A stretch of 64,000 nt of DNA from Armatimonadota bacterium (GTDB taxonomy: Bacteria; Armatimonadota; HRBIN16). Under the pieces are notes generated by a model. The model saw only the letters and a program-made list of their open reading frames with translations. It had not been told where the DNA came from and ran no database searches. The stretch spans positions 352,001 to 416,000 of the forward strand of contig OY781964.1 in assembly GCA_963677485.1 (NCBI GenBank). Direction: 5' to 3'. Made by a program: the position numbers and the translations under genes. Positions within the stretch are counted from its first letter, which is position 1. Each line of letters starts with the position of its first letter. Positions 8,842 through 30,221 of the stretch are shown here, in pieces.

Positions 8842-11178
8842 TTAGTATTCCGCCTTTCCTTCGTATATCATATGCGTGCCGGCCGGGTGAATCACATCGT
8901 GCGCCGTGCCGTTGATCTTCACGCTGATGGTGCCGTGCGGAGTGGCGATCAGCCCCTCTGCTGACGTCACATATCCAGGCAGCTTAGTGAAGCTGAACTT
9001 CTTGAAGCCGGGTTCAAGCGGTTTGATGCCGAGTATATATGCGTGCCAGAAGTAGACCGGAATGCCCGACCAGCCATGGCACAGACTGCCGGCATCATCA
9101 AAGTCGGCGGCACCCTTGATGGTCTCCCAAAAAGTGGTAGCGCCATGGCTCAGCATGTATGCCCAGTCCTTGCGGATGTCCTCCATCGCGGCCAGCCCGA
9201 ACTGCTCCGGCTGCTGAAGCAGTGCCTCATACTTGTAGATACTGTAGCTGAGCGTGGCCCTGACCATGCCGTTCTCGCGGTTGGCCAGCTTGGCCCGCAG
9301 ACCCTGGGCCTCACGTTCGGGCACTACACCGGCCAGAAGCGCAAGCGACTGCGTCAGCTCCGCACAGTGCTGCTCGTTGTCGGAGTAGGTGCGGTATAGC
9401 TGCGTGCGGGCGTCCCAAAACTTGCGGTGGATGGCCTTGTTCACGCTGCGCTGCTGGGCCGAGTAGTCATCGGCCAGAGCCTGATCACCCAGATAGTGTG
9501 CCATCTTGGCCGCCGCTTCGAGGGCCAGCGAGTAGAACAGGTTGAGCGGAGCATCTCGGCGGTCCGGCGACACCTTCTCGCTGTGGGAGCCGTCCAGACC
9601 ATCGGCCCACTCGTAGAAATGCCAGTAACGCTTGCCGATCGGCAACTGCAGCAGTCCCTCAGCCAGCGAGGCCTGGTAGCTCTCCAGCATCCGCATCACG
9701 CGCGGCAACTGCCTGGCGGCGAACTCAAGATCGCCGGTATACATCAGGTGGTCGGCTAATGCGATCACCCACGCCATGCTGAAGCACGGGATCGTGATAG
9801 ATATCTCTGCAGGTGCGCAGAGCTCCAGATAGCCGTCGGCTTTCAGTCCCATGCCCAGAAGCTCCAGAGAAGCCGCCGGGAACTTGGGATCGCCAAACGC
9901 GGTGTAACCACACAGCGCCTGGTTGCGCATATCCATGGCATACAACGCCTGCTCACGCCACGGGCAATCTTCGTAGTGCTCATGCATGCACAGCTCCAGC
10001 GTGCGGATGCTGGTCTGGTAAATCTGGTCGATCTGTTCATCGGAGCTCCGGAAGCTGCCGTTTTGCACCACGGGATAGGCCACCGGCAGCAGGCCCGCAT
10101 ATGCGATTTCGCACTTCGGCCCGGCGTGGCTGATGTGCAGTTGGATATACCGACCAGCCATACGCAGGAAGTAGTGGGTGAAGTTCTGCTTTCCTTCGCG
10201 GCAGACATACCGGCTGGCGAAACACCGCCGGCCCACACTGGCGCGCACGTGACCATCCTCCAGATGCTCTCCCCAGGCGATATCGACGATGGTGCCCTCC
10301 GAGGCATCCAGTTCCAGGTCAAACTGCCCGGCCTCTTCCCTGCCCAGGTCGAAGATCAGATAGATGCCGTCGGCTTTCCTGGCGGCTGCGGTGATGAGCT
10401 TCAATCCCAACCTGTCCGGGAGCCTGGTCGCGTAGCCCGGAATCACAAGCTGCTCCAGAGTGCCCGGCAGAAGGCGTGCTGCCTGCATCTGCTCCGCCAC
10501 AGGGCTTGCCTTCTCCTCAGCCGATTGGTGGAACAGTCCTTGCGCCACCAGGCATGATGTCAGCCGGCCCCCGATGTTGAGTTTTTCGATTGGGCGGGCC
10601 TGAGCAAGCGGACGCGTCTGTGTGCTGACCGTGTCTGCGGCGGTGATTGTGCGCCAGTCCGACTTCATCTGGAACTCTGGCGCATTCCAGTTTTGGTCAT
10701 CAAGCCCGGCGTGGTATTCAAAGGTGAAACCGAGTTGGCCGGTCACTTTGGCTATCTTGCCCTGCTTGTAGCCTTTCGACAGCCGGTAGGAGGTCTCCAC
10801 ACCGCTGCTGACCACCGTCTCGGCACATCGCAAGCTGTAGATCAAACCCGGGTTGGAGATGATGTATTGGAAGCTGTCTGCGCCTTGGTAGAAGCCCAGC
10901 ACCGCGATGGTGTTGCGACCGGCACGAAGGTATTGCGCCACCGGCAGCGTGTCGTAGGTCTTGCATTCGGGATAGTCGTCATACTGACCGAAACCGGCCA
11001 GCTGCCCGTTGATCCACACCGCGTAGTCGGTGTCAATGCTGATGTCTAAACTGGCGTTATTATCGACGCTGGATAGGTCGAACTGCTGTCGATACTGGAC
11101 ATATTGATTAGGTGAACTACCCGCCGCGGCAGGCCAGATCCATAGGGCACCGGTATCATCAAAAAGCTGTGTATTCAT
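8842..11178 (-). CDS. GH78 alpha-L-rhamnosidase family
   Basis: 'EDCPWREQALY', 'GATTFWE', 'SLCHGWS', 'ILGIKPLEPG'. Confidence 0.9.
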   Translation of the reverse strand: MNTQLFDDTGALWIWPAAAGSSPNQYVQYRQQFDLSSVDNNASLDISIDTDYAVWINGQLAGFGQYDDYPECKTYDTLPVAQYLRAGRNTIAVLGFYQGADSFQYIISNPGLIYSLRCAETVVSSGVETSYRLSKGYKQGKIAKVTGQLGFTFEYHAGLDDQNWNAPEFQMKSDWRTITAADTVSTQTRPLAQARPIEKLNIGGRLTSCLVAQGLFHQSAEEKASPVAEQMQAARLLPGTLEQLVIPGYATRLPDRLGLKLITAAARKADGIYLIFDLGREEAGQFDLELDASEGTIVDIAWGEHLEDGHVRASVGRRCFASRYVCREGKQNFTHYFLRMAGRYIQLHISHAGPKCEIAYAGLLPVAYPVVQNGSFRSSDEQIDQIYQTSIRTLELCMHEHYEDCPWREQALYAMDMRNQALCGYTAFGDPKFPAASLELLGMGLKADGYLELCAPAEISITIPCFSMAWVIALADHLMYTGDLEFAARQLPRVMRMLESYQASLAEGLLQLPIGKRYWHFYEWADGLDGSHSEKVSPDRRDAPLNLFYSLALEAAAKMAHYLGDQALADDYSAQQRSVNKAIHRKFWDARTQLYRTYSDNEQHCAELTQSLALLAGVVPEREAQGLRAKLANRENGMVRATLSYSIYKYEALLQQPEQFGLAAMEDIRKDWAYMLSHGATTFWETIKGAADFDDAGSLCHGWSGIPVYFWHAYILGIKPLEPGFKKFSFTKLPGYVTSAEGLIATPHGTISVKINGTAHDVIHPAGTHMIYEGKAEY

Positions 11179-11265
11179 TGGCTCTCTTTCCTGATGCGCG
11201 CTCATCAAGCACGCGGAATATTCCTACCTTAGAATACACCGTCCGGCGGGCTGAATCCTGTTTGG

Positions 11266-11724
11266 TTAGTCAGCTCCCGAAGCATACATCGCTAGACCAC
11301 CATAGAATATGACGTATATCATATAAAGGCCCATCCATACAATGAGGGGCATCGATATCCAAAGTGCTGTATTTGCTAGTTTGGCCTCCTTCGGCTTGTG
11401 CTGTGCTTTTATACGCCGTTTTACGTCACGCGCAACAAACATGGCCGCGACCACTAACCCTAAGCTTAGTATGTAAAACAGGCCTATGGAGAACAACCCT
11501 AATCCAAAGAAAACAAGACCGGCTATAGATAACCTGACAGCCCAATCCGCAGCAACTCGTGGTGAGGATTCATCCAAGGCATCTGTGGGCTCATTCAGCG
11601 ATTCGTAGCATTTCGGGCAGACCAGTAGTCCGCGGTCCTCCTTCGAGCATTCGGCGCACACCGGATGCTTGCAGTAGTGGCAGCGTTCTTCAGCGGTGAT
11701 ATCTGGGTGGTTCACGCAGTGCAT
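11266..11724 (-). CDS. B-box-type Zn finger + DUF4190-like membrane protein
   Basis: CxxH-x8-CxxC-x4-CxxC-x9-CxxC followed by hydrophobic helices; GGAGGA RBS. Confidence 0.8.
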   Translation of the reverse strand: MHCVNHPDITAEERCHYCKHPVCAECSKEDRGLLVCPKCYESLNEPTDALDESSPRVAADWAVRLSIAGLVFFGLGLFSIGLFYILSLGLVVAAMFVARDVKRRIKAQHKPKEAKLANTALWISMPLIVWMGLYMIYVIFYGGLAMYASGAD

Positions 11725-11856
11725 GGGTGGTCCTCCAATGATCGATTTTTGGTGTCCGGTTTCATGTTACCAGATATCAGTTCGCCTGTATCGCATCCGT
11801 AGGGATGGCCCGCGGGCAACTATTTACCTGTCGAGGTTGGCGGCCATGCACCGATT

Positions 11857-11993
11857 CCGCGACATAAATGTCTCGGCTATTGATCAGCAAGCCTGTTAAA
11901 ACAGGCTGCGGCATTTCGTGCCGATGGTGTGCTCTTCGTCCTAGGCTGCTTCAGCAGACTTAGTGGTCAATAGCCGAGACATTTATGTCGCGG
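11857..11993. repeat. REP/REPIN-like palindromic doublet (family B)
   Basis: ccgcgacataaatgtctcggctattga ... tcaatagccgagacatttatgtcgcgg; other arms at 16617, 16911, 17158, 24735. Confidence 0.88.
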
Positions 11994-12114
11994 CGGAAGG
12001 TCACGAGTTGAATCTTGCCTCCGCTTGACATCGCAGCTGGCTTAGAGGAACATACAATCAAGGCTGGTGTTCTGCAACACACGGCATCTGCATATAAACC
12101 TGGAGCAATCATCT

Positions 12115-15100
12115 ATGATCATCAAAATCACCGTGCCGATCCTGATCGCGCTGTTCGCAACAGCGGTCTTGTCCATCTCTCACGCGCAGGGGTCTGCCCT
12201 GGTGGCCCATTGGTCGTTCGATGAAGGCTCCGGCAACGTGGTGCGAGACATCTCAGGGAATGGCCATGACGGCAGGTATCGACATACCGTATTGACAGGC
12301 GGCATCAAAGGCCAGGCGGCCTCTTTCGGCGGAACCAGTGACAGCTGCGTCACCATCGACTCCTCGAAGCTGCCAACCTTCAGAGCATTCACCATTGAGG
12401 CATGGGTCTATCCCGGTGAGTTGGACAGTGCGCCTGACAAATACATCGTAAGCTGGTGGGACCATTTCCTGCTGCGCATCGACCGACCGGGTCTTAATAG
12501 CGCCACCACCTTCTACACCTTCACCAATGCCGATCCAGGCACACCGGCGAAGGGTCCTGCGCTACAAACCAACGTCTGGCAGCACCTGGTGGGCACCTGG
12601 GATGGCTCCACCGCGCAGCTCTGGGTGAATGGTGCGAAGGTCGCCGAAGTGCCGCGGCCCGGCCCGCTGGGAGTCACCGACAAGCCGTTTGACATCGGCG
12701 CCTCGTTCACAGGGCTCATCGATGAAGTCAAACTCTACAGCCGGGCCCTCAGCGCGAAGGAGATCGCAGAGCAATTCGGCATGTCTGTGCGTGTAATGAG
12801 CTTCCAGTCGGAGGACCCCGTCAGCCTCGCCCAGATTCCCGCCAAACTACAGCTCAACCTGATGAACACCAGCCAATCCAGCCTGGTGGCCAGACCGCTT
12901 ATCACGCTGCCCGCCGGTGTGAAACTGGTCGGCAACCAGCCCGAGGCGACCCGCATCGAGGCTGGAAAGAACCGAAGGTTCGTCTGGACCGTCATCTCAT
13001 CCACTGAGGGCATGAAGCAGTTCCTGGTGAATCCCGGTGTGACCGGCGGAGGCGCGCTGCCCGCATCGGCTACCGTCCGGTTCCTGCCCGCGGTCAACAG
13101 CCACAACACATCACAAACAAGGGCAAGTCAGATTAAATTTTCATCCGATGGTTATCAGTTCACCGTCACCGCGGAGCCACACGGACTGAACCTGGTGGTC
13201 ACCTCGCATAGATGCTCGTACCGGCCGCTGGCCGGGCTGGGACCGGTCTTCCGCGCGGGCGATGTGGAGCACCGGCCGGGTTCATACCCTGTGCAACTTG
13301 TGTCTGTGAAACAGCAGCCGCGGTCGCTGACTGCCACCTACCGCGCCCTCCCTGCTGGAATGGAGCCCGTGGAGTTCACCCTCACCGCCAAGCCCGCCAA
13401 ACAAGGGATGTCGCTGGAGTTCGATTGTCAGCAGCCGGTGGTCTCTGCGGTCACGGCTGGTGTTTGCGTCGGCGTCGACACGCTGCGCTCTCAGCCCATG
13501 GGACGATACCACGAGCAGGGCGGCGAAGGCCCGTTCCGTGCATTCTGGCTGGCCGAGGCGCAAAGCTGGGCATGGGCGGAGTGGGACTTCGACAAGAGCA
13601 ACTGTTCCGTCATCACACCCACAGGCACCAAACCTAATCGCCAACCTTTGGTCGGTGATCAAATCTACATGAACCGGCAGGATGGCTCGCGGATGCCCAT
13701 GCATGAGGTGCTGAACCTGAGGCTTGGCTCCGATCTGTGGAAGACGATCGGTCCCCTACCCAACCAGCCCACGCCTTTCGCAAAGGAGCTGCGCAACATG
13801 GTCTGCGCCGACCTCTGGGGAGGCTCCTTCGGTTTCTGCAAAGACTTCCTGGAGTGGCTCGATCGCAGCACAGCGGGCGCCTACAAGTTTTTGACTATCG
13901 TGCATGACTGGCAGTCACCGGCATATGACACCAACCTGCCTGAGGTGATGCCTCCGAGCGCCAAATACGGCGGTGAGCAGGCGATGCGCTCTCTGCTGGC
14001 CACCGGCAACCGCATCGGGCGGATCGGTCTGCATAACAACTATCTGGTCACCGGCCTACCCGGCGGACGCGCGGAATTAGCCGGAGCACGGCCATACCTC
14101 TCTCCCACCGGAGGGATGGACAAGGTCCTCGGCGGGTTCAGGCCGGCACCCATCAGCATGGTCGAACCGATGAAGCTGATCGAGCCGGAGGTACATGCGA
14201 TGGGCACCTCAGCCATTCACATGGATGAGCAAGGTGCAATAGGAATTCCGGTCGATGGTTGGGCGTTTGGCATCAACTGCGACCCGAAACACCCAGATGA
14301 GATCATGCTGCGCACGCTCATTCGAGGGATGCGCGAAACCACACTGACCGCGAAGAAAATACACCAGGGACCGGTGTTCGTGGAGACAGGCGGTAACGAG
14401 TATCTTGAGGGATACTCCGACTGCAATGACTACGGCGTGCTGAAGGGTACCGCGCGTGTACTCTGGCCCGACTACAAGCTGCACCGGATCCAGCCGCTCA
14501 TCGGTGGCTACGGCATGGGTCTGTATTACCGGTATTTCCTGTCACCCAGCGAGTTCTACACGCCATGGCCATCACCCGGTGTCAAACAAGAGGAAGCCGA
14601 CGACTACCGCACCGCGCAGATGTTCTATGCCAACGGTGCCTACCTCTTCTGGTATCCCGGCATGCCCAAGGAGTTCGCCTTCACCGAGGTTGGTCTGGTG
14701 GGCACCCTCCAACCATACTACATGTTCCAAAAGATCAACGAGATCAGTTATCTGTGTGTGGACAGCAAGTGGCGAACTTTCGCGGAGCTCATTCAGCAGG
14801 ATTTGCCGCGCGACCGGCGTTATGTGGTGAAGGAGATCTTCGCCAACGGATATACCCAGATCGTCAACCGCACAGCAGACGAGGTGACCGTCTCCACGTC
14901 GCAAGGCAAAATGGTGCTGCCGAAGAACTCCTTTGTGGCCTGGAAGGGCAGCAGCCTGTATGCCTACTCGGCCTATGCTCCCGGCACACAGCATCGGGTG
15001 GACTTTGCCGAGGACAAAACGCGGCAGATCAAGTTCATCAACCCGCGGGCTGGCGAGTTCCAGGGTGTGACCGTGCCCTCTTTATGGGTGAAGGGCAAGC

Positions 15101-15144
15101 GGGTGGAGGTCTCCTTCACGCCGGACAAGCTCCCACAGAAATGA
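12115..15144 (+). CDS. Secreted LamG-domain protein with putative TIM-barrel glycoside hydrolase (DUF5696-like) C-terminal half
   Basis: Signal peptide; 'AHWSFDEGSG...DISGNG', 'FTIEAWV', 'WQHLVGTWDG', 'GLIDEVKLYSRALS' (LamG); 'HDWQ..YD..LPEV.P....YGG'. Confidence 0.7.
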   Translation: MIIKITVPILIALFATAVLSISHAQGSALVAHWSFDEGSGNVVRDISGNGHDGRYRHTVLTGGIKGQAASFGGTSDSCVTIDSSKLPTFRAFTIEAWVYPGELDSAPDKYIVSWWDHFLLRIDRPGLNSATTFYTFTNADPGTPAKGPALQTNVWQHLVGTWDGSTAQLWVNGAKVAEVPRPGPLGVTDKPFDIGASFTGLIDEVKLYSRALSAKEIAEQFGMSVRVMSFQSEDPVSLAQIPAKLQLNLMNTSQSSLVARPLITLPAGVKLVGNQPEATRIEAGKNRRFVWTVISSTEGMKQFLVNPGVTGGGALPASATVRFLPAVNSHNTSQTRASQIKFSSDGYQFTVTAEPHGLNLVVTSHRCSYRPLAGLGPVFRAGDVEHRPGSYPVQLVSVKQQPRSLTATYRALPAGMEPVEFTLTAKPAKQGMSLEFDCQQPVVSAVTAGVCVGVDTLRSQPMGRYHEQGGEGPFRAFWLAEAQSWAWAEWDFDKSNCSVITPTGTKPNRQPLVGDQIYMNRQDGSRMPMHEVLNLRLGSDLWKTIGPLPNQPTPFAKELRNMVCADLWGGSFGFCKDFLEWLDRSTAGAYKFLTIVHDWQSPAYDTNLPEVMPPSAKYGGEQAMRSLLATGNRIGRIGLHNNYLVTGLPGGRAELAGARPYLSPTGGMDKVLGGFRPAPISMVEPMKLIEPEVHAMGTSAIHMDEQGAIGIPVDGWAFGINCDPKHPDEIMLRTLIRGMRETTLTAKKIHQGPVFVETGGNEYLEGYSDCNDYGVLKGTARVLWPDYKLHRIQPLIGGYGMGLYYRYFLSPSEFYTPWPSPGVKQEEADDYRTAQMFYANGAYLFWYPGMPKEFAFTEVGLVGTLQPYYMFQKINEISYLCVDSKWRTFAELIQQDLPRDRRYVVKEIFANGYTQIVNRTADEVTVSTSQGKMVLPKNSFVAWKGSSLYAYSAYAPGTQHRVDFAEDKTRQIKFINPRAGEFQGVTVPSLWVKGKRVEVSFTPDKLPQK

Positions 15145-15172
15145 CGAACACCGTGCCCGCCAGGAGGACTAG

Positions 15173-16468
15173 ATGATGAATCCAAACAAAGCACTCATCG
15201 ACCGCATAGCCCAGACCAAAACGCTGATGGAAAGCAAGGGTGTCCGGCGCCACAAGCTGACTGGGCTGGATTACTATACCAGCTATACCGACCTGTATGA
15301 CTGGGAACTCTATTACGATACCCTCGCGCTGGCCTATCTGGGCAACGAGAGCTATGGTATCAACGGCATCAATATCTTCCTGGCGAACCAGCGGGAGGAC
15401 GGCTTCATCCCGCGCCATGTGCGTCAGGCGCCGTTCGAAGATTGTGCACCCGAATCCCAGAACCAGATATGGGTGGAGGAGCAAAAAGAGCACTGCAAGC
15501 CCTTCCTTTTCCAGACCGCGCTGATCATCTGCAAAGCTCTTGGAAACATGGACTGGCTCACCATGCCGCAGTTTGAAGGGCTGAAGAGATACCTCAATCA
15601 CTGGCTGAACGATTGGGATAGTGATCATAACGGCCTCTGTGAGTGGAACAGCGGTCCGCACAGCGGAGCCGACTCCCAACTGGAGCGCATCGGCTCATGG
15701 GGTTCCCGCTTCTGTGAGGGTGCCGATCTGAACAGCTTCCTGTATCGCGAGTGCAAAGCCGCCGCGCTGGTGGCCACGATCCTCGGACAAACGGCAGACG
15801 CAGACTGTTTTGAAGCTCAAGCCCAGATCAAGGCCGACCGTATCCAGAAACTTCTCTGGAACGAAGAAGAGGGCTTCTATTTTGACAGGAATTCCAAGAC
15901 CGGCCAACCCATCCTGGTGAAATCCGCGGCTGCATTCCTACCGCTCTGGGCAGGAATCGCCACCTATAGCCAGGCGGAAGCGCTGGTGGAGAAGCATCTG
16001 AAGAACACAGATGAGTTTTGGACGGCTCTACCGGTGCCCGCTTACGCCCGATCCGAACCGTTCTACACCCAATACTACCAACCCAACTACGACCTCGATC
16101 CGCTCCGGACTTTGCCACCAGGACACTGCAACTGGAATGGCGGCACTTGGCTTCACTGGGACTATATGTTTGTGCAAGGCCTGCGGCAATATGGTTTTGT
16201 GGAAGAGGCCAACCAGTTGGCCAACAAGCTGTGTGCGGCCATGCAGTCAAACCCAGGCGTATTCGAGTGGTATAACGCCGACACCGGTGAAGGCTGTGGG
16301 ATGTCCTTCTGGGCTGGTGCCACCGTGATGGGCTTCCTCATGCCCACGGAACTCGGTCTTGGCGTAGACCCAACGCGGCTGGATGCCAACCTCGACCCCG
16401 CGGGCTTCGAAGCCGTGCGGCAGCAGCTTGGGCTTACCGGCAGGTTTACGCCGACAGAGGTTCACTGA
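15173..16468 (+). CDS. MGH1/GH63-like (trehalase-like) glycoside hydrolase
   Basis: 'LYDWE', 'HSGADS', 'DLNSFLY', 'LWNEEEGFYFD', 'FLPLWAG', 'WNGGTW', 'FEWYN'. Confidence 0.82.
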   Translation: MMNPNKALIDRIAQTKTLMESKGVRRHKLTGLDYYTSYTDLYDWELYYDTLALAYLGNESYGINGINIFLANQREDGFIPRHVRQAPFEDCAPESQNQIWVEEQKEHCKPFLFQTALIICKALGNMDWLTMPQFEGLKRYLNHWLNDWDSDHNGLCEWNSGPHSGADSQLERIGSWGSRFCEGADLNSFLYRECKAAALVATILGQTADADCFEAQAQIKADRIQKLLWNEEEGFYFDRNSKTGQPILVKSAAAFLPLWAGIATYSQAEALVEKHLKNTDEFWTALPVPAYARSEPFYTQYYQPNYDLDPLRTLPPGHCNWNGGTWLHWDYMFVQGLRQYGFVEEANQLANKLCAAMQSNPGVFEWYNADTGEGCGMSFWAGATVMGFLMPTELGLGVDPTRLDANLDPAGFEAVRQQLGLTGRFTPTEVH

Positions 16469-16493
16469 TTGGGGAGCGGACTCATACCCTCAC

Positions 16494-17194
16494 TGCCACG
16501 CCCTCAGTACCGCGCCCTGAAGGACACGGTTTATTAGCAAAAAGCCGGCTCGAAGCCGGCTGCCGGAGATCCGCGGCCGAGAGGATTGATCGCATCTATT
16601 GCCGCATGTCCGTCCGCAGCCTGTTTCAACGGGCTTGGCTGGTCAATAGCCGAGACATTTATGTCGCGGTAGCAGTGACGGTGTCCCCCACACGCTACAT
16701 GCCTTCCGGCACCCACGGAGTGGGTATGATTCTTATAGCCAGGGGTAAGCGAAGCGCAACCCCTGGTAGATGCAACACCATCCCTACCCCGAAGTGGGTC
16801 GAACCGGTTTACAGCGGTCTACCATTCAACTCGGCGTGACGTAAGAGATGCCACGCCCTCGATATCAGTCTATTACCCACAAATATCGCATGGCCAGTAG
16901 GTCACCGATTCCGCGACATAAATGTCTCGGCTAATGAACACCAAGACTGCTGAAGCAGTCTTCATTAACGTTATCTTTGTCGGCAAGGAGCTCCGCAGCC
17001 CGGTTTAGCGGGCTTGTATATAGCTGGTCGTAGGGGCGTCCCTTGTGGGCGCCCTAATCGTTGTTGATTCGATAGTTTTGGTTTTAGGGCGTCCACAAGG
17101 GACGCCCCTACGACCGTATCAGTTACAGTCTGGGCTACCGTACCAGCACGGGTAGGTGCTTGGCTGGTCAATAGCCGAGACATTTATGTCGCGG
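16494..17194. repeat. Mosaic cluster of REP-like elements (families D/B, A, B, E)
   Basis: D/B hybrid 16510-16669; family A 16705-16803; family B pair 16911/17194 enclosing GTAG REP doublet 17029-17112. Confidence 0.85.
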
Positions 17195-17242
17195 TATTTG
17201 CGGTCGCCGACTACGATATGAGATTGATATCCATCGACTAGA

Positions 17243-17656
17243 CTACTCGCCACATACACCGGTTAGCTGATTTTTGGGGATTTTGAAAAACCGCAACCCA
17301 TAAATGACCACTATCCATAGTGCAGATTTAAACAGACCGCCATAGTTGTGTGTTAGGATGCTGAGGTAGATCCCCGTCACACACATACAGGTAAGCAGCC
17401 GCCTGATCGCCAGGCGTACGCCAACACCCTCCGGCGATTGCCAGAATGCCTTTTTAGACTCGATACGAGCGAGCCTTTCCTCATCTGACGGAACGGCTGA
17501 ATTGCCAGCCAGCTCTACTGGTTGGTTCTCAGGGTCGAAACACTGCTTGCAGACGTATCGGCCGCGGTCGTTTAACAGGCAAATGGGGCAGAACGGCTGG
17601 TGGCAGACGTCGCAACTGCATTGTGTATAAATGCTAGAATGGTTGGTACAGTTCAT
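17243..17656 (-). CDS. B-box Zn finger membrane protein (array gene 5)
   Basis: MNCTNH...CDVC...CPIC...CKQC then two hydrophobic segments; start reassigned to ATG 17656 (AAGGGG RBS). Confidence 0.8.
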   Translation of the reverse strand: MNCTNHSSIYTQCSCDVCHQPFCPICLLNDRGRYVCKQCFDPENQPVELAGNSAVPSDEERLARIESKKAFWQSPEGVGVRLAIRRLLTCMCVTGIYLSILTHNYGGLFKSALWIVVIYGLRFFKIPKNQLTGVCGE

Positions 17657-17756
17657 GATGTTCCCCTTATCATATGGCCCGTTGCCCTCTGTTAATGATA
17701 GCCTTCGATAATGCTGAGCTTCGGCCCTTCCGCTCGTTCGCACGTTCACTCGTTCG

Positions 17757-18191
17757 TCAGCAACCCATATTCGCGATCCTGTAGACCGCCGCAGCGCACA
17801 CCAAGACAATCACCAGCGCAGACATCCAGATCGTCGTGGTTGCTAACCGGGCCGATTTGGGATCATGACGTTCGTGGCAGAGCTTCCTGGCATCGCGCGC
17901 ATAGATGATCGCATCAATTGATAGACCAAGGCTGACCAGGAAAAACACGCCCAAAGTAGCCAAACCCAGGCCGCAAAACAAAACACCCTGCACGAACGTC
18001 CACAAGGCCTTTTTTGCCGCGATGTCGGTCGGTTCAACAAAAGAAGTGGCTGACGCTGAGGTCTGGGGCTCATAACATGACAGGCATGTTATGGTTCCAC
18101 TGTCCTCATGCATGCAGTCGCTGCAGACAAACTGTTGACAGATATGGCATCGCCCTTGTGAGGGAACCTCTGGATGGTTTGCGCAGTTCAT
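17757..18191 (-). CDS. B-box Zn finger + DUF4190-like membrane protein (array gene 4)
   Basis: MNCANH...CHIC...CSDC...CLSC plus TM helices; AAGGAG RBS. Confidence 0.82.
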   Translation of the reverse strand: MNCANHPEVPSQGRCHICQQFVCSDCMHEDSGTITCLSCYEPQTSASATSFVEPTDIAAKKALWTFVQGVLFCGLGLATLGVFFLVSLGLSIDAIIYARDARKLCHERHDPKSARLATTTIWMSALVIVLVCAAAVYRIANMGC

Positions 18192-18209
18192 ATTTACTCC
18201 TTAATCATG

Positions 18210-18647
18210 TCATCCGCTAAATATGAGAGCCTTTTGCGCCATGATAAGTATGAATACGGCCACCATCAGCACTACGCTCATTACGATCGCCGCGTTGGCT
18301 AGGACAAGGCCCTTCAGCTCCGGTTGTTCTTTCAGAATCCGCCTGGCCTTCACCGCTTTAAATATGGAAACGACAAATAACACGGCACTAATAAGCAATG
18401 GCAAGCTCACAAAAACTACACCAAGCCCGACGTTCACAAACCCCCAAACCGCCAGCTTGAACGCAAGCATCGCCTCTTTGCACAACAGTGATTCGTCCAT
18501 CGGCTCCTCTGGCGGGTTTATCGTGTCATAACACTTCTGACACATGAACCGACCGCGGTCGTCTACCAGCGTGCCGACGGGGAAACTGCCCTTGCAGGTG
18601 TCACACATGATGGTCGTCGGTACATCAGGTAACAGTTTAATTTTCAT
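18210..18647 (-). CDS. Half-B-box Zn finger + DUF4190-like membrane protein (array gene 3)
   Basis: Only CDTC...CQKC retained; 'KGLVLANAAIVMS' DUF4190-like; AGGAGG RBS. Confidence 0.8.
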   Translation of the reverse strand: MKIKLLPDVPTTIMCDTCKGSFPVGTLVDDRGRFMCQKCYDTINPPEEPMDESLLCKEAMLAFKLAVWGFVNVGLGVVFVSLPLLISAVLFVVSIFKAVKARRILKEQPELKGLVLANAAIVMSVVLMVAVFILIMAQKALIFSG

Positions 18648-18662
18648 GTAGCCTCCTGTGCA

Positions 18663-19100
18663 TTAACACGGATGTTGCAAGAAACGTACCAACGAGATAC
18701 TCACATACAGCAGCATGCATGCCACCATCGAACCCGACAACCACAATGCTGTGTTCGCAGCCAACCTGACCAACCCTCCCGAAAGCGGCTTCGGTTGGCG
18801 CTTCAGTTCAACGGCCTGGAGCACTGATCCCGCGGAAAAGCCGATACTCAGGATGATAAACAACCCGATGGAATGCACACCCCACCAAAAGCTGATCAAC
18901 CCACTGATCGCCAGTATGAGGGCAGTTAGGGCACCCTTCGACGCTGAGAAACCACTTGGCTCGCTGGCGTTCATCACATCGAAGCAGCTTTGACAGATAT
19001 ACCCTGCACGTTCTTCAACCATACTCTCAACCGGTACCAAATGCTGGCAGTTCGCGCATCGGGCGTGCGTCGGGATGTCTGCGGGTAGTATAATTTTCAT
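18663..19100 (-). CDS. Half-B-box Zn finger + DUF4190-like membrane protein (array gene 2)
   Basis: Only CANC...CQSC retained; TM helices; AGGAGG RBS. Confidence 0.8.
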   Translation of the reverse strand: MKIILPADIPTHARCANCQHLVPVESMVEERAGYICQSCFDVMNASEPSGFSASKGALTALILAISGLISFWWGVHSIGLFIILSIGFSAGSVLQAVELKRQPKPLSGGLVRLAANTALWLSGSMVACMLLYVSISLVRFLQHPC

Positions 19101-19131
19101 ATGGCCTCCTGCTAGATTTCAAATGTAAAGC

Positions 19132-19650
19132 CTACTTCATCATCTGTGTTCGGATGAGTTGGAACCAAAGATACACCGGTATCCAAAGGATGATGACGAC
19201 AAATAGGATATTCGTCATCAAACTATACTGCCTGTTAGTTGGACGTGGCTGGTTACGAGTCTTGCGGTTTGATATAAACTCGCTCATCAAGAAAAGAGGT
19301 AGCCATACAACATCAATCACCAACCGCACATTGTAAAAACCTCGATCAAAACCATGAGTGCTGGTGGCATCACTGTAAATAAGCTTCAGCCACATCACCA
19401 CAATAAATACCCAGGCAGCCCATATAACGGCAACACCCAGTCTTGTTTTGAAAAACGCTTGACAAGCTTCATACCGACTATTGGTGACAGATGAATCCTC
19501 GATACTTACCACAAGCGGTTGCGCCGGGTCAAAACACTGCCTGCACACAAACCGGCCGCGGTCGTCCTGCAGACAACTGGGGCAATACGGCTTGTGGCAC
19601 ACGTCGCAACTGGTTTTTACGATAATATCGGGATGGTTGGTGCAGTTCAT
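19132..19650 (-). CDS. B-box Zn finger membrane protein (array gene 1)
   Basis: MNCTNH...CDVC...CPSC...CRQC plus three hydrophobic segments; start reassigned to ATG 19650. Confidence 0.8.
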   Translation of the reverse strand: MNCTNHPDIIVKTSCDVCHKPYCPSCLQDDRGRFVCRQCFDPAQPLVVSIEDSSVTNSRYEACQAFFKTRLGVAVIWAAWVFIVVMWLKLIYSDATSTHGFDRGFYNVRLVIDVVWLPLFLMSEFISNRKTRNQPRPTNRQYSLMTNILFVVIILWIPVYLWFQLIRTQMMK

Positions 19651-19837
19651 CGCATCTCTACTTCGATCGTTTTTCGATACTCTGTCTGTATAATACCATA
19701 TCGAATAGCACTGCATGACGACGTGACTACTAGAACTCATTTGGTACTATGATATTGGTGTGAAATGAACCTAATGCCTACCGAGACGGTCAAAATATGA
19801 GACTGATGGTTGATGATGGGACCGTGGAAACTAGAAT

Positions 19838-20560
19838 ATGAATATTGGCGTGCTGTTAGCCGCAGGTACCGGATCGCGAGCAGAAACTGACATCCCGAAG
19901 CAGTTTACGATTCTGAACGGGAAATATATGCTTCACCGTAGTCTACGCTGCCTGATCGAAGAGCCTGACCTCGGCCGAATCTACATTGCAGTGCCCCAAA
20001 AATGGCTGGATTACTCCCAAATTGTTCTCAGCGAACTACCGGCCACTGCTCGCACCAGGAAAATGATTCGGCTGGTAATCGGTGGTGACACCCGGAGCGA
20101 ATCGATCCGACTAGCTTCTCAGGCCGCCATCAACGACCAATGCATAGACAGCCAGTCACTGATGGTCGTCCATGATGCCGACAGACCATTCGCGACGGTC
20201 GGCATGGTAAGGAACTCTTTAACAGCCGCTTCGGAGCTGGTATCGAGTGTATGTGTGGTGCCTGAACATGACACGGTATTTATCCATAAAGATGATGATA
20301 ATGTATGTCACATGGCGGATCGAAGCCTGATATACCGTGGCCAAGCTCCTGAAGGGGTCAATGTGCATCTCTGGAATCAGTGTTACGACAGCATGGACGA
20401 AACGGAAAGATACCGCATGACGGGCACAGTACAGGTCGTGCTGGCCAAGGGCCATAAAGTGGTTTCCGTGCCCGGGGATGATTCGAATATCAAGATCACC
20501 ACTCCCTGGGACTTCACCATTGCAGAAGCATACTTAAGGCGGGTCGAACGATCAAAGTAG
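19838..20560 (+). CDS. IspD/TarI family cytidylyltransferase
   Basis: 'LAAGTGSR...PKQF', 'GGDTRSES', 'VHDADRP', 'NIKITTP.D'. Confidence 0.9.
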   Translation: MNIGVLLAAGTGSRAETDIPKQFTILNGKYMLHRSLRCLIEEPDLGRIYIAVPQKWLDYSQIVLSELPATARTRKMIRLVIGGDTRSESIRLASQAAINDQCIDSQSLMVVHDADRPFATVGMVRNSLTAASELVSSVCVVPEHDTVFIHKDDDNVCHMADRSLIYRGQAPEGVNVHLWNQCYDSMDETERYRMTGTVQVVLAKGHKVVSVPGDDSNIKITTPWDFTIAEAYLRRVERSK

Positions 20561-20594
20561 ATATTATCATGGTTATGTTCAGTTCAACCGGCCG

Positions 20595-21506
20595 TTGGCC
20601 AAGAAACATATGATGCACCAGACTAACGTGGAATTACCGCCAGACACAAGGCAAATCATCGGTAAAGTATTGATTTATCAAAGCGTCATCATCGACATGA
20701 TGAAAGTCATCGACGCGTTTTGTCGCGCGCATAACATCAGATATTTCCTGTATGGCGGCACCCTGTTAGGCGCAGTTCGCCACCATGGGTTCATCCCATG
20801 GGACGATGACGCAGATATCTGTATGCTGCGCGAGGATTATGAGCGTTTTATTCATCTTTGGACCAAAGACGAGACCGGGCTCGATCTGGAGTGCCATCTC
20901 ACAGACGAGACATCCAGTATGCCGTTTGGCAAAGTAAGAATGCCCGGAACAGAGCTGCACGAGGATTCCGATACTTCGAAACAGTTTTATGGAATATGGA
21001 TTGACATCTTCCAACTCGATTATTATTCCAACAACCGCATCATCAGGGGTATAGAACAAAAAGTCACCACATTGCTATACAACTGCCACGAAAAGCGTGA
21101 GCTGGGACCTATCGCAAGCATCGGTGGATTTTTCCGCAATCTCCAACTGCATATTCAGTTATACTGTCTATTATCCTGGCTGGTCGGCATACCATGGATC
21201 CATGTCTGGCTCCAACGATACCGTCGCAGACCACGGAAGTATGTGGCCGACTGCTCTGGGTGCGGAAGAAAAAAATCCTGTGTACCAGTTTCTATGTTCG
21301 CGAATGTGGAGTATATGGAGTTTGAGGGGCTGTCACTGCCGGTAATGGGTGAATGGAAAAGTTGGCTCACACACGTGTATGGCGACTATATGCAGATGCC
21401 ACCCGTTGAACAACGGCGACCAGGCCATACCATTGAGTCCATCGATACCCCATCTTACGTGCCATCGATCACCCGATACCGAAAGACCGAAACGGGAGAC
21501 AGTTGA
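20595..21506 (+). CDS. LicD family phosphotransferase
   Basis: 'GGTLLGAVRHHGFIPWDDDADI', 'IDIFQLD', 'YGDYMQMPP'. Confidence 0.93.
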   Translation: MAKKHMMHQTNVELPPDTRQIIGKVLIYQSVIIDMMKVIDAFCRAHNIRYFLYGGTLLGAVRHHGFIPWDDDADICMLREDYERFIHLWTKDETGLDLECHLTDETSSMPFGKVRMPGTELHEDSDTSKQFYGIWIDIFQLDYYSNNRIIRGIEQKVTTLLYNCHEKRELGPIASIGGFFRNLQLHIQLYCLLSWLVGIPWIHVWLQRYRRRPRKYVADCSGCGRKKSCVPVSMFANVEYMEFEGLSLPVMGEWKSWLTHVYGDYMQMPPVEQRRPGHTIESIDTPSYVPSITRYRKTETGDS

Positions 21507-21548
21507 GGTGGGGATGATAATTCCTCCACCTGCGATATTGGAAATGAA

Positions 21549-22391
21549 ATGCAAACTTCACTGATCATTACGACCTATAATTCCAAAACAACACTTTCCA
21601 GGGTCTTAAACTCGTATAAACAGCAGATCGTCATGCCGGATGAAATCATCATCGCAGACGATGGCTCCAGAGATGGAACGGACTTGATGATCGCACAGAT
21701 GCAGTCTGACTACCCATGCCCACTCAAGCATGTCTGGCAGCCAGATAACGGGTTCCAGGCCGCACGCATCCGCAACTTGGCGGTGATACAATCAACCGGC
21801 GACTACTTGATATTCACAGACGGCGATTGCATCCCGCACCCCCTCTTTATCAAAGACCACATCGGTTTGGCTCAGCATGGCCAGTTTGTGTCAGGATACC
21901 GTATCCGGCTGTCAGAAAGAGCCACGCCTGGGTTCCGTTGGCGAGGAGCCGGCACACTGCCACACATTCCCATCAATCGATGGCGGCACCTGATACGAGT
22001 TTTGCATGCACCCAGGCTTTACTGTAGTGCAGAGGATTACCTCATGACACACAGAGCATCTATTGCGAGCTGCAATATGGCGGTTTTTCGTGATGACTAC
22101 ATTGCGGTCAACGGGTTTGACGAACGCTTTGTAGGCTGGGGAGCCGAAGACAGTGAGTTGGCGGTTAGACTGTGCCGATACGGCCTAAAAATGTTGGTGG
22201 TCCGGTATAGGGCACTCACCTTTCATCTACGCCACCCTGAACAGCCGAAGGATCGTGAGATGTTGAACGAAAAGCTGCTGGAGCAATCCAAGCTTAACCC
22301 CACCCATCAATGCATACACGGCTTGGAGGACTTAAGCAGTTCAGAGCTAAGCACCCACCCGTGCACGCACGACAGCCCAGGCTGTAAATGA
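21549..22391 (+). CDS. Glycosyltransferase family 2
   Basis: 'IITTYN', 'IADDGS', 'FTDGDC', 'NGFDERFVGWGAEDSE'. Confidence 0.93.
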   Translation: MQTSLIITTYNSKTTLSRVLNSYKQQIVMPDEIIIADDGSRDGTDLMIAQMQSDYPCPLKHVWQPDNGFQAARIRNLAVIQSTGDYLIFTDGDCIPHPLFIKDHIGLAQHGQFVSGYRIRLSERATPGFRWRGAGTLPHIPINRWRHLIRVLHAPRLYCSAEDYLMTHRASIASCNMAVFRDDYIAVNGFDERFVGWGAEDSELAVRLCRYGLKMLVVRYRALTFHLRHPEQPKDREMLNEKLLEQSKLNPTHQCIHGLEDLSSSELSTHPCTHDSPGCK

Positions 22392-22513
22392 TACAAGGGA
22401 CGCCCCTACGCCATGTTTCCTACAAACGGATTATGAACACAACAAACTGCTGGCGTTCGCCAATACAACAATGCCACCAACAATACACCCATATGGAAGT
22501 ATAATAGCTACAC

Positions 22514-23545
22514 ATGATAGAAACGCATGCACCTGACGAACACATCGATGTGAAACCTAACAGCCGCAAACCATCAATACTCTCAGGAATCGCCATCTGC
22601 TTGGGGATTTCGTTCCTCGCGCTGTGGCTGGGAGGGCTGATGCCGATCATCGGCGGACCGGTCTTTTCGATCATCATTGGCATCGCGGTGGGAAACTCGC
22701 TGACACTGTCCGATGGCACGAAACCGGGAATCGCCTTTTGCAGTAAGAAGCTGCTTCAGACCGCCATCATCGTGATGGGTGCCAGCTTGAGCCTGGTGCA
22801 GGTCTGGAACACCGGGCGTGATTCCGCCAGCGTGATGCTGGTCTCGCTGTTCACTGCGTTGATCGGAGCGTATCTGATCGGCCGCAAGATGGGCGTATCC
22901 CGTAACCTCACCAGCCTGATCGGGGTCGGCACCGCCATCTGCGGCGGATCGGCCATCGCGGCGATCGCACCGATCATCAGCGCCGATGATGACGAGATCG
23001 CATTCTCCATATCCACCATCTTTCTGTTCAATGTCATGGCGGTGTTGTTGTTCCCGGCACTTGGCCACTTGATGCATATGACCAGTCAAGGCTTCGGGCT
23101 ATGGGCAGGCACTGCCATCAACGACACATCCTCTGTGGTGGCCAGTGCGTATTCCTACAGCAAGGCGGCCGGTGATTACGCCACCATCACTAAACTGGCG
23201 CGCACCACCATGATTATCCCGATCGCGCTCGCCTTCACAGCGCTCGCTAGAAGGCGGTCCGGCACGACCAACTTCCAGATGCGCTCCATATTCCCATGGT
23301 TCGTGATCGGATTCCTTCTCGCCGCTCTGCTCAACACCACAGGTCTGTTGGGTGCACAGATGCAGCATTGGGCAGGTTCGGCGGGCAAATTCCTGATCGT
23401 GGTCGCACTGGCTGGTGTGGGTCTGGGAGCCAACTTCCGCAAGATCGTGAAAACCGGCTCGAAACCCATTCTGCTTGGTATGATCGTATGGGCGTTGGTG
23501 GCCGTCACCAGCTTGGCCGTGCAGATGCTGATGAAGCAATTTTAG
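22514..23545 (+). CDS. YeiH/UPF0324 family membrane transporter (putative sulfate exporter)
   Basis: 'LIGVGTAICGGSAIAA', 'GTAINDTSSV', 'KLAR'; multiple TM segments. Confidence 0.92.
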   Translation: MIETHAPDEHIDVKPNSRKPSILSGIAICLGISFLALWLGGLMPIIGGPVFSIIIGIAVGNSLTLSDGTKPGIAFCSKKLLQTAIIVMGASLSLVQVWNTGRDSASVMLVSLFTALIGAYLIGRKMGVSRNLTSLIGVGTAICGGSAIAAIAPIISADDDEIAFSISTIFLFNVMAVLLFPALGHLMHMTSQGFGLWAGTAINDTSSVVASAYSYSKAAGDYATITKLARTTMIIPIALAFTALARRRSGTTNFQMRSIFPWFVIGFLLAALLNTTGLLGAQMQHWAGSAGKFLIVVALAGVGLGANFRKIVKTGSKPILLGMIVWALVAVTSLAVQMLMKQF

Positions 23546-23566
23546 CGGCTGAAGCTGTCTACTATC

Positions 23567-23990
23567 GACGACATCCGTGCCTTGGTCACTAATCCATAGT
23601 GTAGATCGGCCTTCCGGCATCCTGAAGTGTTTGTGATTGTTATTGTCACAGGTGATCGTCCGACACCCACGGTTATGGTATGCTTATAGAAATGGCTCGG
23701 TACGGGCCTTTCATCCATGCCCAGGGTGTGGTTTTCATTCGTTGTCACAGACATGAGTCCTACACCCACGGTGGATGCCAATTCATATGGCCACGCATGA
23801 GCGGACGGTGTCTGTGATGTGATCAATAGCTATACAACAGTGATGGGACATCCGGCACCCACGAAGTGGGTACTTTCTTATAGCCACGGATGAGCGGACG
23901 GTGCCTGTGATGTTATCAATAGCTATACAACAGTGATGGGACGTCCGGCACCCACGAAGTGGGTACTTTCTTATAGCCACGGGTGAGCGC
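23567..23990 (+). repeat. Degenerate tandem array of the family-A REP left arm (exact 93-bp period, apparent ~46-bp sub-period)
   Basis: tccggcacccacgaagtgggtactttcttatagccacgg at 23851 and 23944; diverged copies at 23758, 23659, 23613. Confidence 0.75.
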
Positions 23991-24651
23991 CAGCGAAACC
24001 CGTGGTAAGCGCCCCATCTATCTACCCCGAAGTGGGTCGTTTGACAGGAGGTTGCGATGCCAGGATCGCTCGTTTCTAACCACGTCCATGTCATATTCAG
24101 CACACATAATCGGACTGATACCATTCTCAACGAATACCACGAACACCTTTACAACATCATCGCGGATGTTGCCAAAGGGCATCACTGCCATATGCGTGCG
24201 GTTGGTGGAACCTGCAATCACATTCATATGTTAATGTCACTTCACCAGGATAGCCGGTTATCCTATGTAGTTCGGGATATCAAGATTGCCTCATCGAAAT
24301 GGGTTCATGACCACGGTGGCCAATTTCAATGGCAGTCAGGATATGGCGCGTTCTCTGTTGGTCAACGCGAACTGGAGGTGATCAAAAGATATATTCTCAA
24401 TCAGAAGGTTCACCACCAGAAGCATACGTTTGAAGAAGAGATGGTCAAAATCCTGAAATATGCGCAGATTGAGTATAATCCTGACCATGTTTTTGGGTGA
24501 TGGACCAGGTTGAGATATTGTGTTGTGACCCGAATCATCCGCTGCGAAGTGGTTCGACCCACTTCGGGGTAATATATGACGACATCCACCACGGGTTTCG
24601 CTGGCGCTCACCCGTGGCTATAAGAATGTACCCACTTCGTGGGTGCCCGGA
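23944..24651 (+). mobile_element. RAYT/IS200-like element: Y1 transposase flanked by inverted ~97-bp palindromic elements
   Basis: Left copy 23944-24040 and inverted right copy 24553-24651 enclose the transposase ORF. Confidence 0.8.
24057..24500 (+). CDS. tnpA: IS200/IS605-family Y1 (HUH) transposase, REP-associated type
   Basis: 'HVIFSTHNR', HUH 'NHIHML', 'WQSGYGAFSV', catalytic 'RYILNQ'; AGGAGG RBS. Confidence 0.92.
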   Translation: MPGSLVSNHVHVIFSTHNRTDTILNEYHEHLYNIIADVAKGHHCHMRAVGGTCNHIHMLMSLHQDSRLSYVVRDIKIASSKWVHDHGGQFQWQSGYGAFSVGQRELEVIKRYILNQKVHHQKHTFEEEMVKILKYAQIEYNPDHVFG

Positions 24652-30127: not shown

Positions 30128-30221
30128 GATATGGCCTCCGAATCTTCTATAGGGTCACCGTCACATACCTTGCGGTATGGCGAATTATCTTTTGGTATGC
30201 GTGCATTTTGTATTTCATCTC

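Follow-up and report, generated by a model that had tools for sequence, protein, structure and literature searches.

What might a bacterium use six small membrane proteins for, when all of them begin with the same kind of zinc finger and end in membrane tails of apparently two origins? The question is raised by a 64,000-nucleotide stretch of contig OY781964.1 from an Armatimonadota bacterium (the window, whose first letter is position 1), in which five co-oriented genes, c1 to c5, lie within positions 17243-19650 and a sixth, c6, stands apart at 11266-11724. A sequence-only reading of this DNA had proposed that a conserved cytoplasmic zinc module, together with membrane modules that vary and fall into two types, makes up an undescribed repertoire of sensors, immunity proteins or receptors that may feed a common partner. 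The modular combination was borne out, both by comparing fingers and tails separately and by profile alignment with hhalign; the novelty of the architecture, the repertoire and the partner were not. The explanation that we consider probable is that a widespread family of small inner-membrane proteins has expanded in this lineage and been shuffled locally, and that its members may act as membrane-tethered cytoplasmic adaptors, a function that we infer.

The six genes and their zinc finger

All six open reading frames (ORFs) announced by the sequence-only reading are present and intact, and all are on the minus strand; within the array, transcription runs from c5 to c1, the names following window order. 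Of the array genes, c1 (17243-17656, 137 aa) has a full zinc finger of the N-I type and a short, weakly hydrophobic tail of the family called type B below; c2 (17757-18191, 144 aa) combines a full finger with a DUF4190-like tail, and the same kind of tail follows the one-site fingers of c3 (18210-18647, 145 aa, N-II type) and c4 (18663-19100, 145 aa, N-III type); c5 (19132-19650, 172 aa) has a full N-I finger and a three-segment type-B tail. The solitary c6 (152 aa) has a full eight-ligand finger and a DUF4190-like membrane part of three helices. Start codons were chosen with homologue support: for c1 and c5 the longest ORFs begin further upstream, and the ATG yielding "MNC..." fits the N-termini of all relatives. 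Purine-rich motifs resembling ribosome-binding sites (RBS) precede c1-c4 and c6, that of c5 being weaker. Since the intergenic gaps are short (31, 15, 18 and 100 nt), the array is likely one operon; a simple scan for promoters and terminators gave nothing decisive, and Rfam and tRNA scans of 10500-24000 returned no RNA family and no tRNA.

Regarding copy number, c2 searched against the whole 5.22 Mb genome matched c6 with an E value of 5e-31 and c4, c3, c1 and c5 with E values from 7e-10 to 7e-7, and nothing else; a profile of the six genes added a single weak match, a membrane segment elsewhere in the genome (E 0.06). The genomic copy number is therefore six, with no paralogue beyond the array and c6. 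The stored protein P0008 is an 88-93% relative of c2.

As for the finger, the pattern C-x2-H-x8-C-x2-C-x4-C-x2-C-x9-C-x2-C had been described as shared throughout; it is complete in four of the six proteins (c1, c2, c5 and c6), but c3 and c4 retain only ligand pairs 2 and 4, pairs 1 and 3 being gone. The cross-brace arrangement assigns one zinc ion to pairs 1 and 3 and the other to pairs 2 and 4; read in this way, the four complete copies would bind two zinc ions through their four pairs, and the change in c3 and c4 would amount to the loss of one zinc site, leaving a zinc-ribbon-like core. The spacing of the eight Cys/His ligands in the four complete fingers is B-box-like, the consensus used for this comparison being drawn partly from PMC4506424.

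The AF2 model of c6 reached a pLDDT of 86.7 as a whole and of 97 within its zinc domain, and the finger modelled alone reached 83. Structural comparison of the modelled finger with VIA-align 2 placed FYVE domains first (Z 5.4, with a root-mean-square deviation (rmsd) of 1.4 Å over 44 residues), followed by Rab-effector fingers and the cross-brace finger of piggyBac, with the plant B-box COL2 at Z 2.9; Foldseek searches of the PDB, run with the whole c6 model and with the 52-residue finger, had no match at E ≤ 0.001, and the B1-box of PML ranked 36th for the modelled finger. The FYVE, Rab-effector, piggyBac and B-box fingers all fall in the RING-like cross-brace group of PMC4506424. The Z values are too low to pick among these types, and the module is predicted to be a B-box/FYVE-like, cross-brace, binuclear treble-clef finger of about 40 residues at the N-terminus. 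By sequence, the best PDB match was the LIM domain of PINCH (E 0.0044), over half of the finger only; a LIM fold was rejected because its sequential zinc sites would not outlast the loss of pairs 1 and 3. An NCBIfam scan of the window proteins returned noise only. Zinc-binding anti-sigma factors (ZAS, zf-HC2) were also looked for: no such Pfam family matched at E ≤ 1, and the 13 flanking ORFs include no sigma factor.

The one-site finger is not confined to c3 and c4. A survey of 188 finger domains from 158 stored proteins, aligned to the finger profile, found all four pairs in 158 domains, joint absence of pairs 1 and 3 in 12, belonging to at least four protein groups, and joint absence of pairs 2 and 4 in none; these frequencies are not unbiased, the sample having been gathered with a profile that itself contained one-site variants, and the rows seemingly devoid of the last pair were mostly local alignments ending early. 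Besides the cluster of this genus, at least three proteins unrelated to it (P0087, P0025 and P0091) show the joint loss of pairs 1 and 3. Moreover, the one-site form of c3 and c4 is kept in the sister genome G001, of the same genus, and in metagenome relatives, with pairs 2 and 4 invariant. On these alignments, c3 and c4 look like one-zinc derivatives, not wrecks, and the recurrent joint loss offers sequence-level support for the cross-brace fold in bacterial fingers.

Membrane tails, topology and the exchange of modules

The tails were compared with hhalign, profile against profile, after the fingers had been cut off. Those of c2, c3, c4, c6 and their close relatives aligned with seven proteins passing the DUF4190 cut-off at 97.7% (E 1.6e-12, 87 columns), whereas the c1-type, c5-type and G001-c5-type tails scored 0.6-7% against DUF4190 and 88-98.7% against each other. 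The division into two C-terminal types made in the sequence-only reading held, and the tails form two unrelated families, DUF4190-like (c2, c3, c4 and c6) and type B (c1 and c5). Type-B tails turned up only in the close-relative genus cluster; the c5 tail, used in a word-based search, retrieved c5 itself only, and the best ESM Atlas match to c5, with a score of 0.87, is under the trust level and serves as a lead only. Elsewhere in the genome, seven places match DUF4190, all of them outside the array and c6. Two loci (L015, G000:C1:3152500-3157500, and L016, G000:C1:1012000-1017000; G000 is this genome) hold tandem triplets coding for proteins of 200-310 aa that begin with a membrane part of the DUF4190 type and close with a conserved domain whose last motif is "...DGH...W(K/S)P", so that DUF4190 anchors other paralogue arrays in the same genome.

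In the c6 model, three helices span residues 55-76, 81-108 and 111-150, and eight Lys/Arg lie between residues 99 and 115. In the DUF4190-like tails a helical hairpin is followed by a basic loop and then by a last helix, and in all six proteins an acidic linker of about 15-20 residues separates finger and membrane part; c5 has three hydrophobic segments and a similar basic loop, and in c1 no 19-residue Kyte-Doolittle window reaches 1.6. Because a cysteine-rich zinc finger is expected in the cytoplasm, and by the positive-inside rule, the path predicted for c6 is N-terminus in, helical hairpin, basic loop in, last helix, C-terminus out, with one turn and a few terminal residues as the only parts likely to be exposed outward. 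With the finger and the basic loop cytoplasmic, the proteins would have their site of action at the inner membrane face, and so small an exposure argues against the sensing of outside ligands.

The modular mixing was followed in 22 close relatives, finger and tail being treated separately. The N-I finger occurs with type-B tails in c1, c5, their G001 copies, P0012 and P0013, and with the end of a c4-type tail in P0016, a 95-aa deletion fusion; the N-II finger occurs with DUF4190-like tails in c3, its G001 copy and P0010, and with type-B tails in P0014, which is present on two separate contigs, and in P0015, a chimera from G001. A candidate substrate for such exchange is the direct repeat D1, two finger-coding stretches of 125 nt with 76% identity on the minus strand, at 17532-17656 in c1 and at 19526-19650 in c5, between which unequal crossing-over is likely. 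Tandem duplication would have built the array, and recombination at the conserved finger-coding DNA would then reshuffle it, swapping or deleting tails.

G001 offers the closest comparison, these two genomes being the ones that hold the array, and its content differs between them. In G001 the array is split: a c3-like and a c1-like gene adjoin the orthologue of a 431-aa glycosidase, and a second locus, about 2.4 Mb off and beside the IspD-like and LicD orthologues, has a c5-like gene, a c4-like gene that ends at a TAG stop (94 aa), and the chimera P0015, whose finger is of the c3 type and whose tail is of the c1 type. This second locus has the arrangement expected from a crossover between the finger regions of c3 and c1 in a five-gene array like that of the window. 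No counterpart of c2 was found in G001, and the right flank beyond its c3-like/c1-like locus is unrelated to that of the window. The array itself was also compared with contigs of four sequencing runs over 16400-20600; two isolate-like runs have the identical array and two metagenome runs cover only pieces of it, every joint listed falls in the repeat region next to c1 described below, and no array variation was shown.

Between the two genomes, fingers and tails have changed at very different rates. The zinc parts of c5 and its counterpart are 93% identical and their tails 29%; for c1 the values are 78% and 40%, and the c1 tail has a ratio of nonsynonymous to synonymous substitution rates (dN/dS) of 0.77. 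Finger dN/dS lies between 0.03 and 0.29: the fingers are conserved, and the type-B tails are not. The c3 orthologues, 79% identical, are constrained throughout (dN/dS 0.13), and c6 has a syntenic orthologue that is 88% identical (dN/dS 0.12), its flanking genes ranging from 0.08 to 0.12; purifying selection thus acts on c6 and c3 as it does on the genes around them.

These figures bear on the possibility that the genes are redundant duplicates drifting to loss, with c6, perhaps also c2 and c3, as the functional ones and the odd fingers and tails as decay products. The missing zinc site of c3 and c4, the truncated c4-like gene of G001, the near-neutral c1 tail with no strongly hydrophobic segment and the deletion fusion P0016 would all follow from such drift. 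However, none of the six ORFs is broken, clear RBS-like motifs precede five of them, the fingers are constrained, and the one-site form is conserved in both genomes and in metagenome relatives and has arisen again in unrelated proteins; a drift of the duplicates to loss is thus judged unlikely.

Distribution, neighbourhood and alternative explanations

The six-gene profile matched 659 representatives among 1.84 billion at E ≤ 1e-3, and the source names of the close relatives are Armatimonadota. Sixty of the 659 were scanned with Pfam: 16 pass the zf-B_box cut-off, 8 pass that of DUF4190, and 13 have both at E ≤ 0.01. In relatives, finger and DUF4190 together are found in fusions with FHA, Ser/Thr kinase, receiver and VWA-FHA domains, which would make the module an anchor or platform there, and the finger alone is fused to RDD, TM2, the PrsW protease and other parts. 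At E ≤ 0.01 the same profile has matches in 16 of 41 related genomes; this genome and G001 have six copies each, but no copy was found in G002, a 97% complete genome of their genus, or in any of 15 genomes from the family's two other genera.

A broad profile, made of 78 family members, has matches at E ≤ 1e-6 in 190 of the 251 phylum genomes, in a tally that scored 16 candidates per genome and includes matches to DUF4190 alone; most genomes have one to three matches, a few have eight and the maximum is 13. In five genomes of the neighbouring genus all 10 broad-profile matches cover the membrane part only, and 145 of the 150 best matches listed begin within the finger, which a hand count assigns to roughly 100 genomes. 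A narrow profile of the finger only matched 39 of the 251 genomes at E ≤ 1e-4 and, within the family of the window, this genome and G001 only. From the two distributions, the architecture of zinc finger plus DUF4190 is common, and the clade of the window confined to a sub-lineage and expanded there. Much of the Armatimonadota sample has such proteins, other phyla have them too, and the Pfam models recognise relatives, so the architecture as such is not undescribed. A search for related loci with c6 alone returned the G001 locus and two weak matches from Anaerolineae, and the finger alignment had no match among metagenome contigs. Tandem pairs of family genes exist elsewhere in the phylum, for example in G108, G236 and G062; in the last (L027, G062:C3:947700-955500), a tandem zinc-finger/DUF4190 pair lies beside genes for DUF2752, RDD and SpoIIM-family membrane proteins.

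The fast divergence of the tails, their exchange between finger types, the patchy presence of the family in the genus and the different array content of the two genomes could also be the marks of a diversifying immunity, exclusion or recognition repertoire, in which each tail would neutralise or recognise a different membrane-acting agent (a phage protein or a bacteriocin, for instance) and the finger would report to a shared partner. Base composition points the same way: the guanine-plus-cytosine (GC) content of the array is 50.7%, under the genome mean of 54.4%. The earlier remark that the array is more AT-rich than the glycosidase genes flanking it holds, but those genes are themselves GC-rich (59%, 92nd-95th percentile), and the array is mildly unusual and no outlier, since 12% of all 2.5-kb windows have a still lower GC content (12th percentile). 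A horizontal island is not supported either, the GC being mildly low and mobile genes absent alongside. Defence databases do not help this reading: PADLOC gave c4 one weak match, on the finger (15.6 bits, E 0.0016), and none to the other five proteins, and PHROGs nothing meaningful for the six. The 13 flanking ORFs, scanned with Pfam, include no toxin, secretion, integrase, phage or mobile gene, the neighbours being glycosidases and glycan-synthesis genes. Moreover, c6 and c3 are constrained like housekeeping neighbours, the superfamily is common in the phylum, two isolate-like runs have the same array, and the proteins would have almost nothing outside; a sensor, immunity or receptor repertoire, as the sequence-only reading had it, is therefore an unlikely account of the locus.

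The neighbourhood suggests another role, that of accessory membrane factors of envelope glycan metabolism, which might scaffold or regulate the adjacent enzymes. One flank codes for a rhamnosidase, a Laminin_G_3 protein and an MGH1-like glycosidase, and the other for an IspD-like cytidylyltransferase, LicD and GT2. In both genomes c6 and the rhamnosidase gene share a strand, c6 being 57 nt upstream; c5 and the IspD-like gene are divergently transcribed, and the c5-like gene of G001 still is divergent from the IspD-like/LicD genes despite the split of the array. Glycosyltransferase genes also adjoin relatives in two loci of one family. On the other hand, when the 149 ORFs around 20 relatives' loci were compared with Pfam, no glycan or other gene recurred beyond single taxonomic families, and the linkage seen here is common to two sister genomes only, where it may be simple synteny. 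A part in glycan metabolism is accordingly judged less probable still than immunity or decay. The same survey bears on the common partner postulated earlier: no neighbour is conserved across families, a rhomboid gene adjoining two loci of family f4, and profile and zf-B_box searches of the genome found no other B-box-like protein.

Finally, a recombining cassette system, with the finger DNA as crossover site, two-site or one-site fingers freely combined with exchangeable membrane modules, and a combinatorial intramembrane recognition repertoire as product (for example in immunity to membrane-acting phage proteins or bacteriocins), is a long shot.

What remains probable is the locally shuffled expansion of a widespread inner-membrane family. 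In eukaryotes, B-box-type fingers are protein-interaction modules; this role, the fusions of the module in relatives and the inward topology are the reasons for regarding the six proteins as adaptors. The finger would serve for protein docking or assembly and the tail as an anchor setting the membrane context, and the adaptors possibly interact among themselves and would not be receptors for outside signals. Since the genome has no other B-box-like protein, contacts between fingers, if any, would be among the six.

Several points weigh against this explanation. The window proteins are under the Pfam cut-offs, so that their family membership hangs on relatives: with zf-B_box (PF00643), c2, c6 and c5 score 17.9, 15.0 and 14.5 bits by hmmscan, below the cut-off of 24.1, c1, c3 and c4 have no match, and a search of the genome yields 21.4, 18.2 and 17.9 bits at best; with DUF4190 (PF13828, cut-off 35 bits), none of c1-c6 matches at E ≤ 1. 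The structural matches are all weak, with Z below 8 and none from Foldseek at its threshold, and a partner was found neither among conserved neighbours nor as another B-box-like protein. P0013, P0016 and P0010 are each known from one short metagenome contig and may be assembly artefacts. In addition, the c1 tail and the truncated c4-like gene, mentioned above, may indicate decay.

As for the remaining context, a mosaic of repetitive extragenic palindromic (REP)-like sequences at 16540-17245 (unstranded) lies downstream of c1, and a related one at 11849-11995 upstream of c6; the two bracket the glycosidase block 12067-16468. The REP mosaic noted at the border of the array is real, with nested inverted repeats and very high contig depth, but it is context and does not belong to the gene family, and it is not specific to this locus because its 20-nt core has 99 exact copies in the genome (149 with up to 2 mismatches). 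Beyond c5, the stretch 19838-22391, with the IspD-like, LicD and GT2 genes, has a GC content of 50.4%, below average; its synonymous divergence (dS) from G001 is 1.0-1.3, and that of the glycosidase genes 0.35-0.54. Between two of the glycosidase genes, G001 has an extra gene of 511 aa that is absent from the window (L013, 9091-10626), with a repeat pattern that is FG-GAP/VCBS-like by eye. Further on, at 27284-32411, the window has two large adjacent genes with ten RCC1-type repeats each, one of them fused to an FGE-sulfatase-type domain.

Comparison with known systems

A literature search found no functional test of proteins combining the zinc finger with DUF4190, the latter appearing, within the library searched, in a co-expression remark only. 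The phrases "bacterial B-box" and "prokaryotic B-box" were not met among the papers listed, and a search combining B-box, rhomboid and bacteria gave nothing relevant by title or abstract. Burroughs, Iyer and Aravind (2011, Mol Biosyst 7:2261) reportedly covered membrane-associated B-boxes when they surveyed the RING-like fingers of prokaryotes, and their paper may already describe this architecture. With six paralogues, two finger states, two tail families and a differently arranged sister genome, the locus is a compact natural experiment, on which the binding target of the finger and the interchangeability of the tails could be studied.

By structure, FYVE domains (PDB 2yw8 and 1joc) are the nearest: they superpose with Z of 5.4 and 4.9 and rmsd of 1.4-1.7 Å over 44 residues, at 30% identity, and agree with the modelled finger in cross-brace layout and in how the four ligand pairs are spaced. 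The phosphoinositide-binding motifs of FYVE domains are WxxD, the basic R(R/K)HHCR patch and RVC. The first two are absent from the alignment of the six proteins, and an RVC-like "R-x-V-C" before the last ligand pair is the sole signature present in the window fingers; Pfam FYVE_2 gives an E value of 0.77, and all Z values are below the level that would exclude a merely common arrangement.

By presumed role, the eukaryotic B-boxes can be compared. Those of TRIM proteins mediate homotypic assembly. In plants, the microProteins miP1a/b are reported to be short proteins consisting of a B-box only that modulate larger relatives (bioRxiv 10.1101/2023.08.12.553068). Both have in common with the window proteins the use, here inferred, of a small B-box-type finger as protein-protein interaction module; unlike them, the window proteins are membrane-anchored, and their genome has no larger B-box protein to modulate.

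The closest known kind are prokaryotic membrane proteins with zf-B_box and DUF4190, such as P0023, P0024, P0043 and P0055. Like the window proteins, those of the P0023 type have an N-terminal eight-ligand finger, a short linker and a DUF4190-type tail within 130-150 aa, and the six-gene profile aligns with them end to end (E 1e-10 to 1e-8). In contrast to them, the window proteins stay under both Pfam cut-offs, two copies have the other tail family and two a one-site finger, and the set is a shuffled group of six where most matching genomes have one to three. What the locus would add to this kind is a second tail family, one-zinc fingers and the shuffling of cassettes, and by these three traits the array and c6 can be regarded as a variant of a known but uncharacterised kind of bacterial membrane protein.

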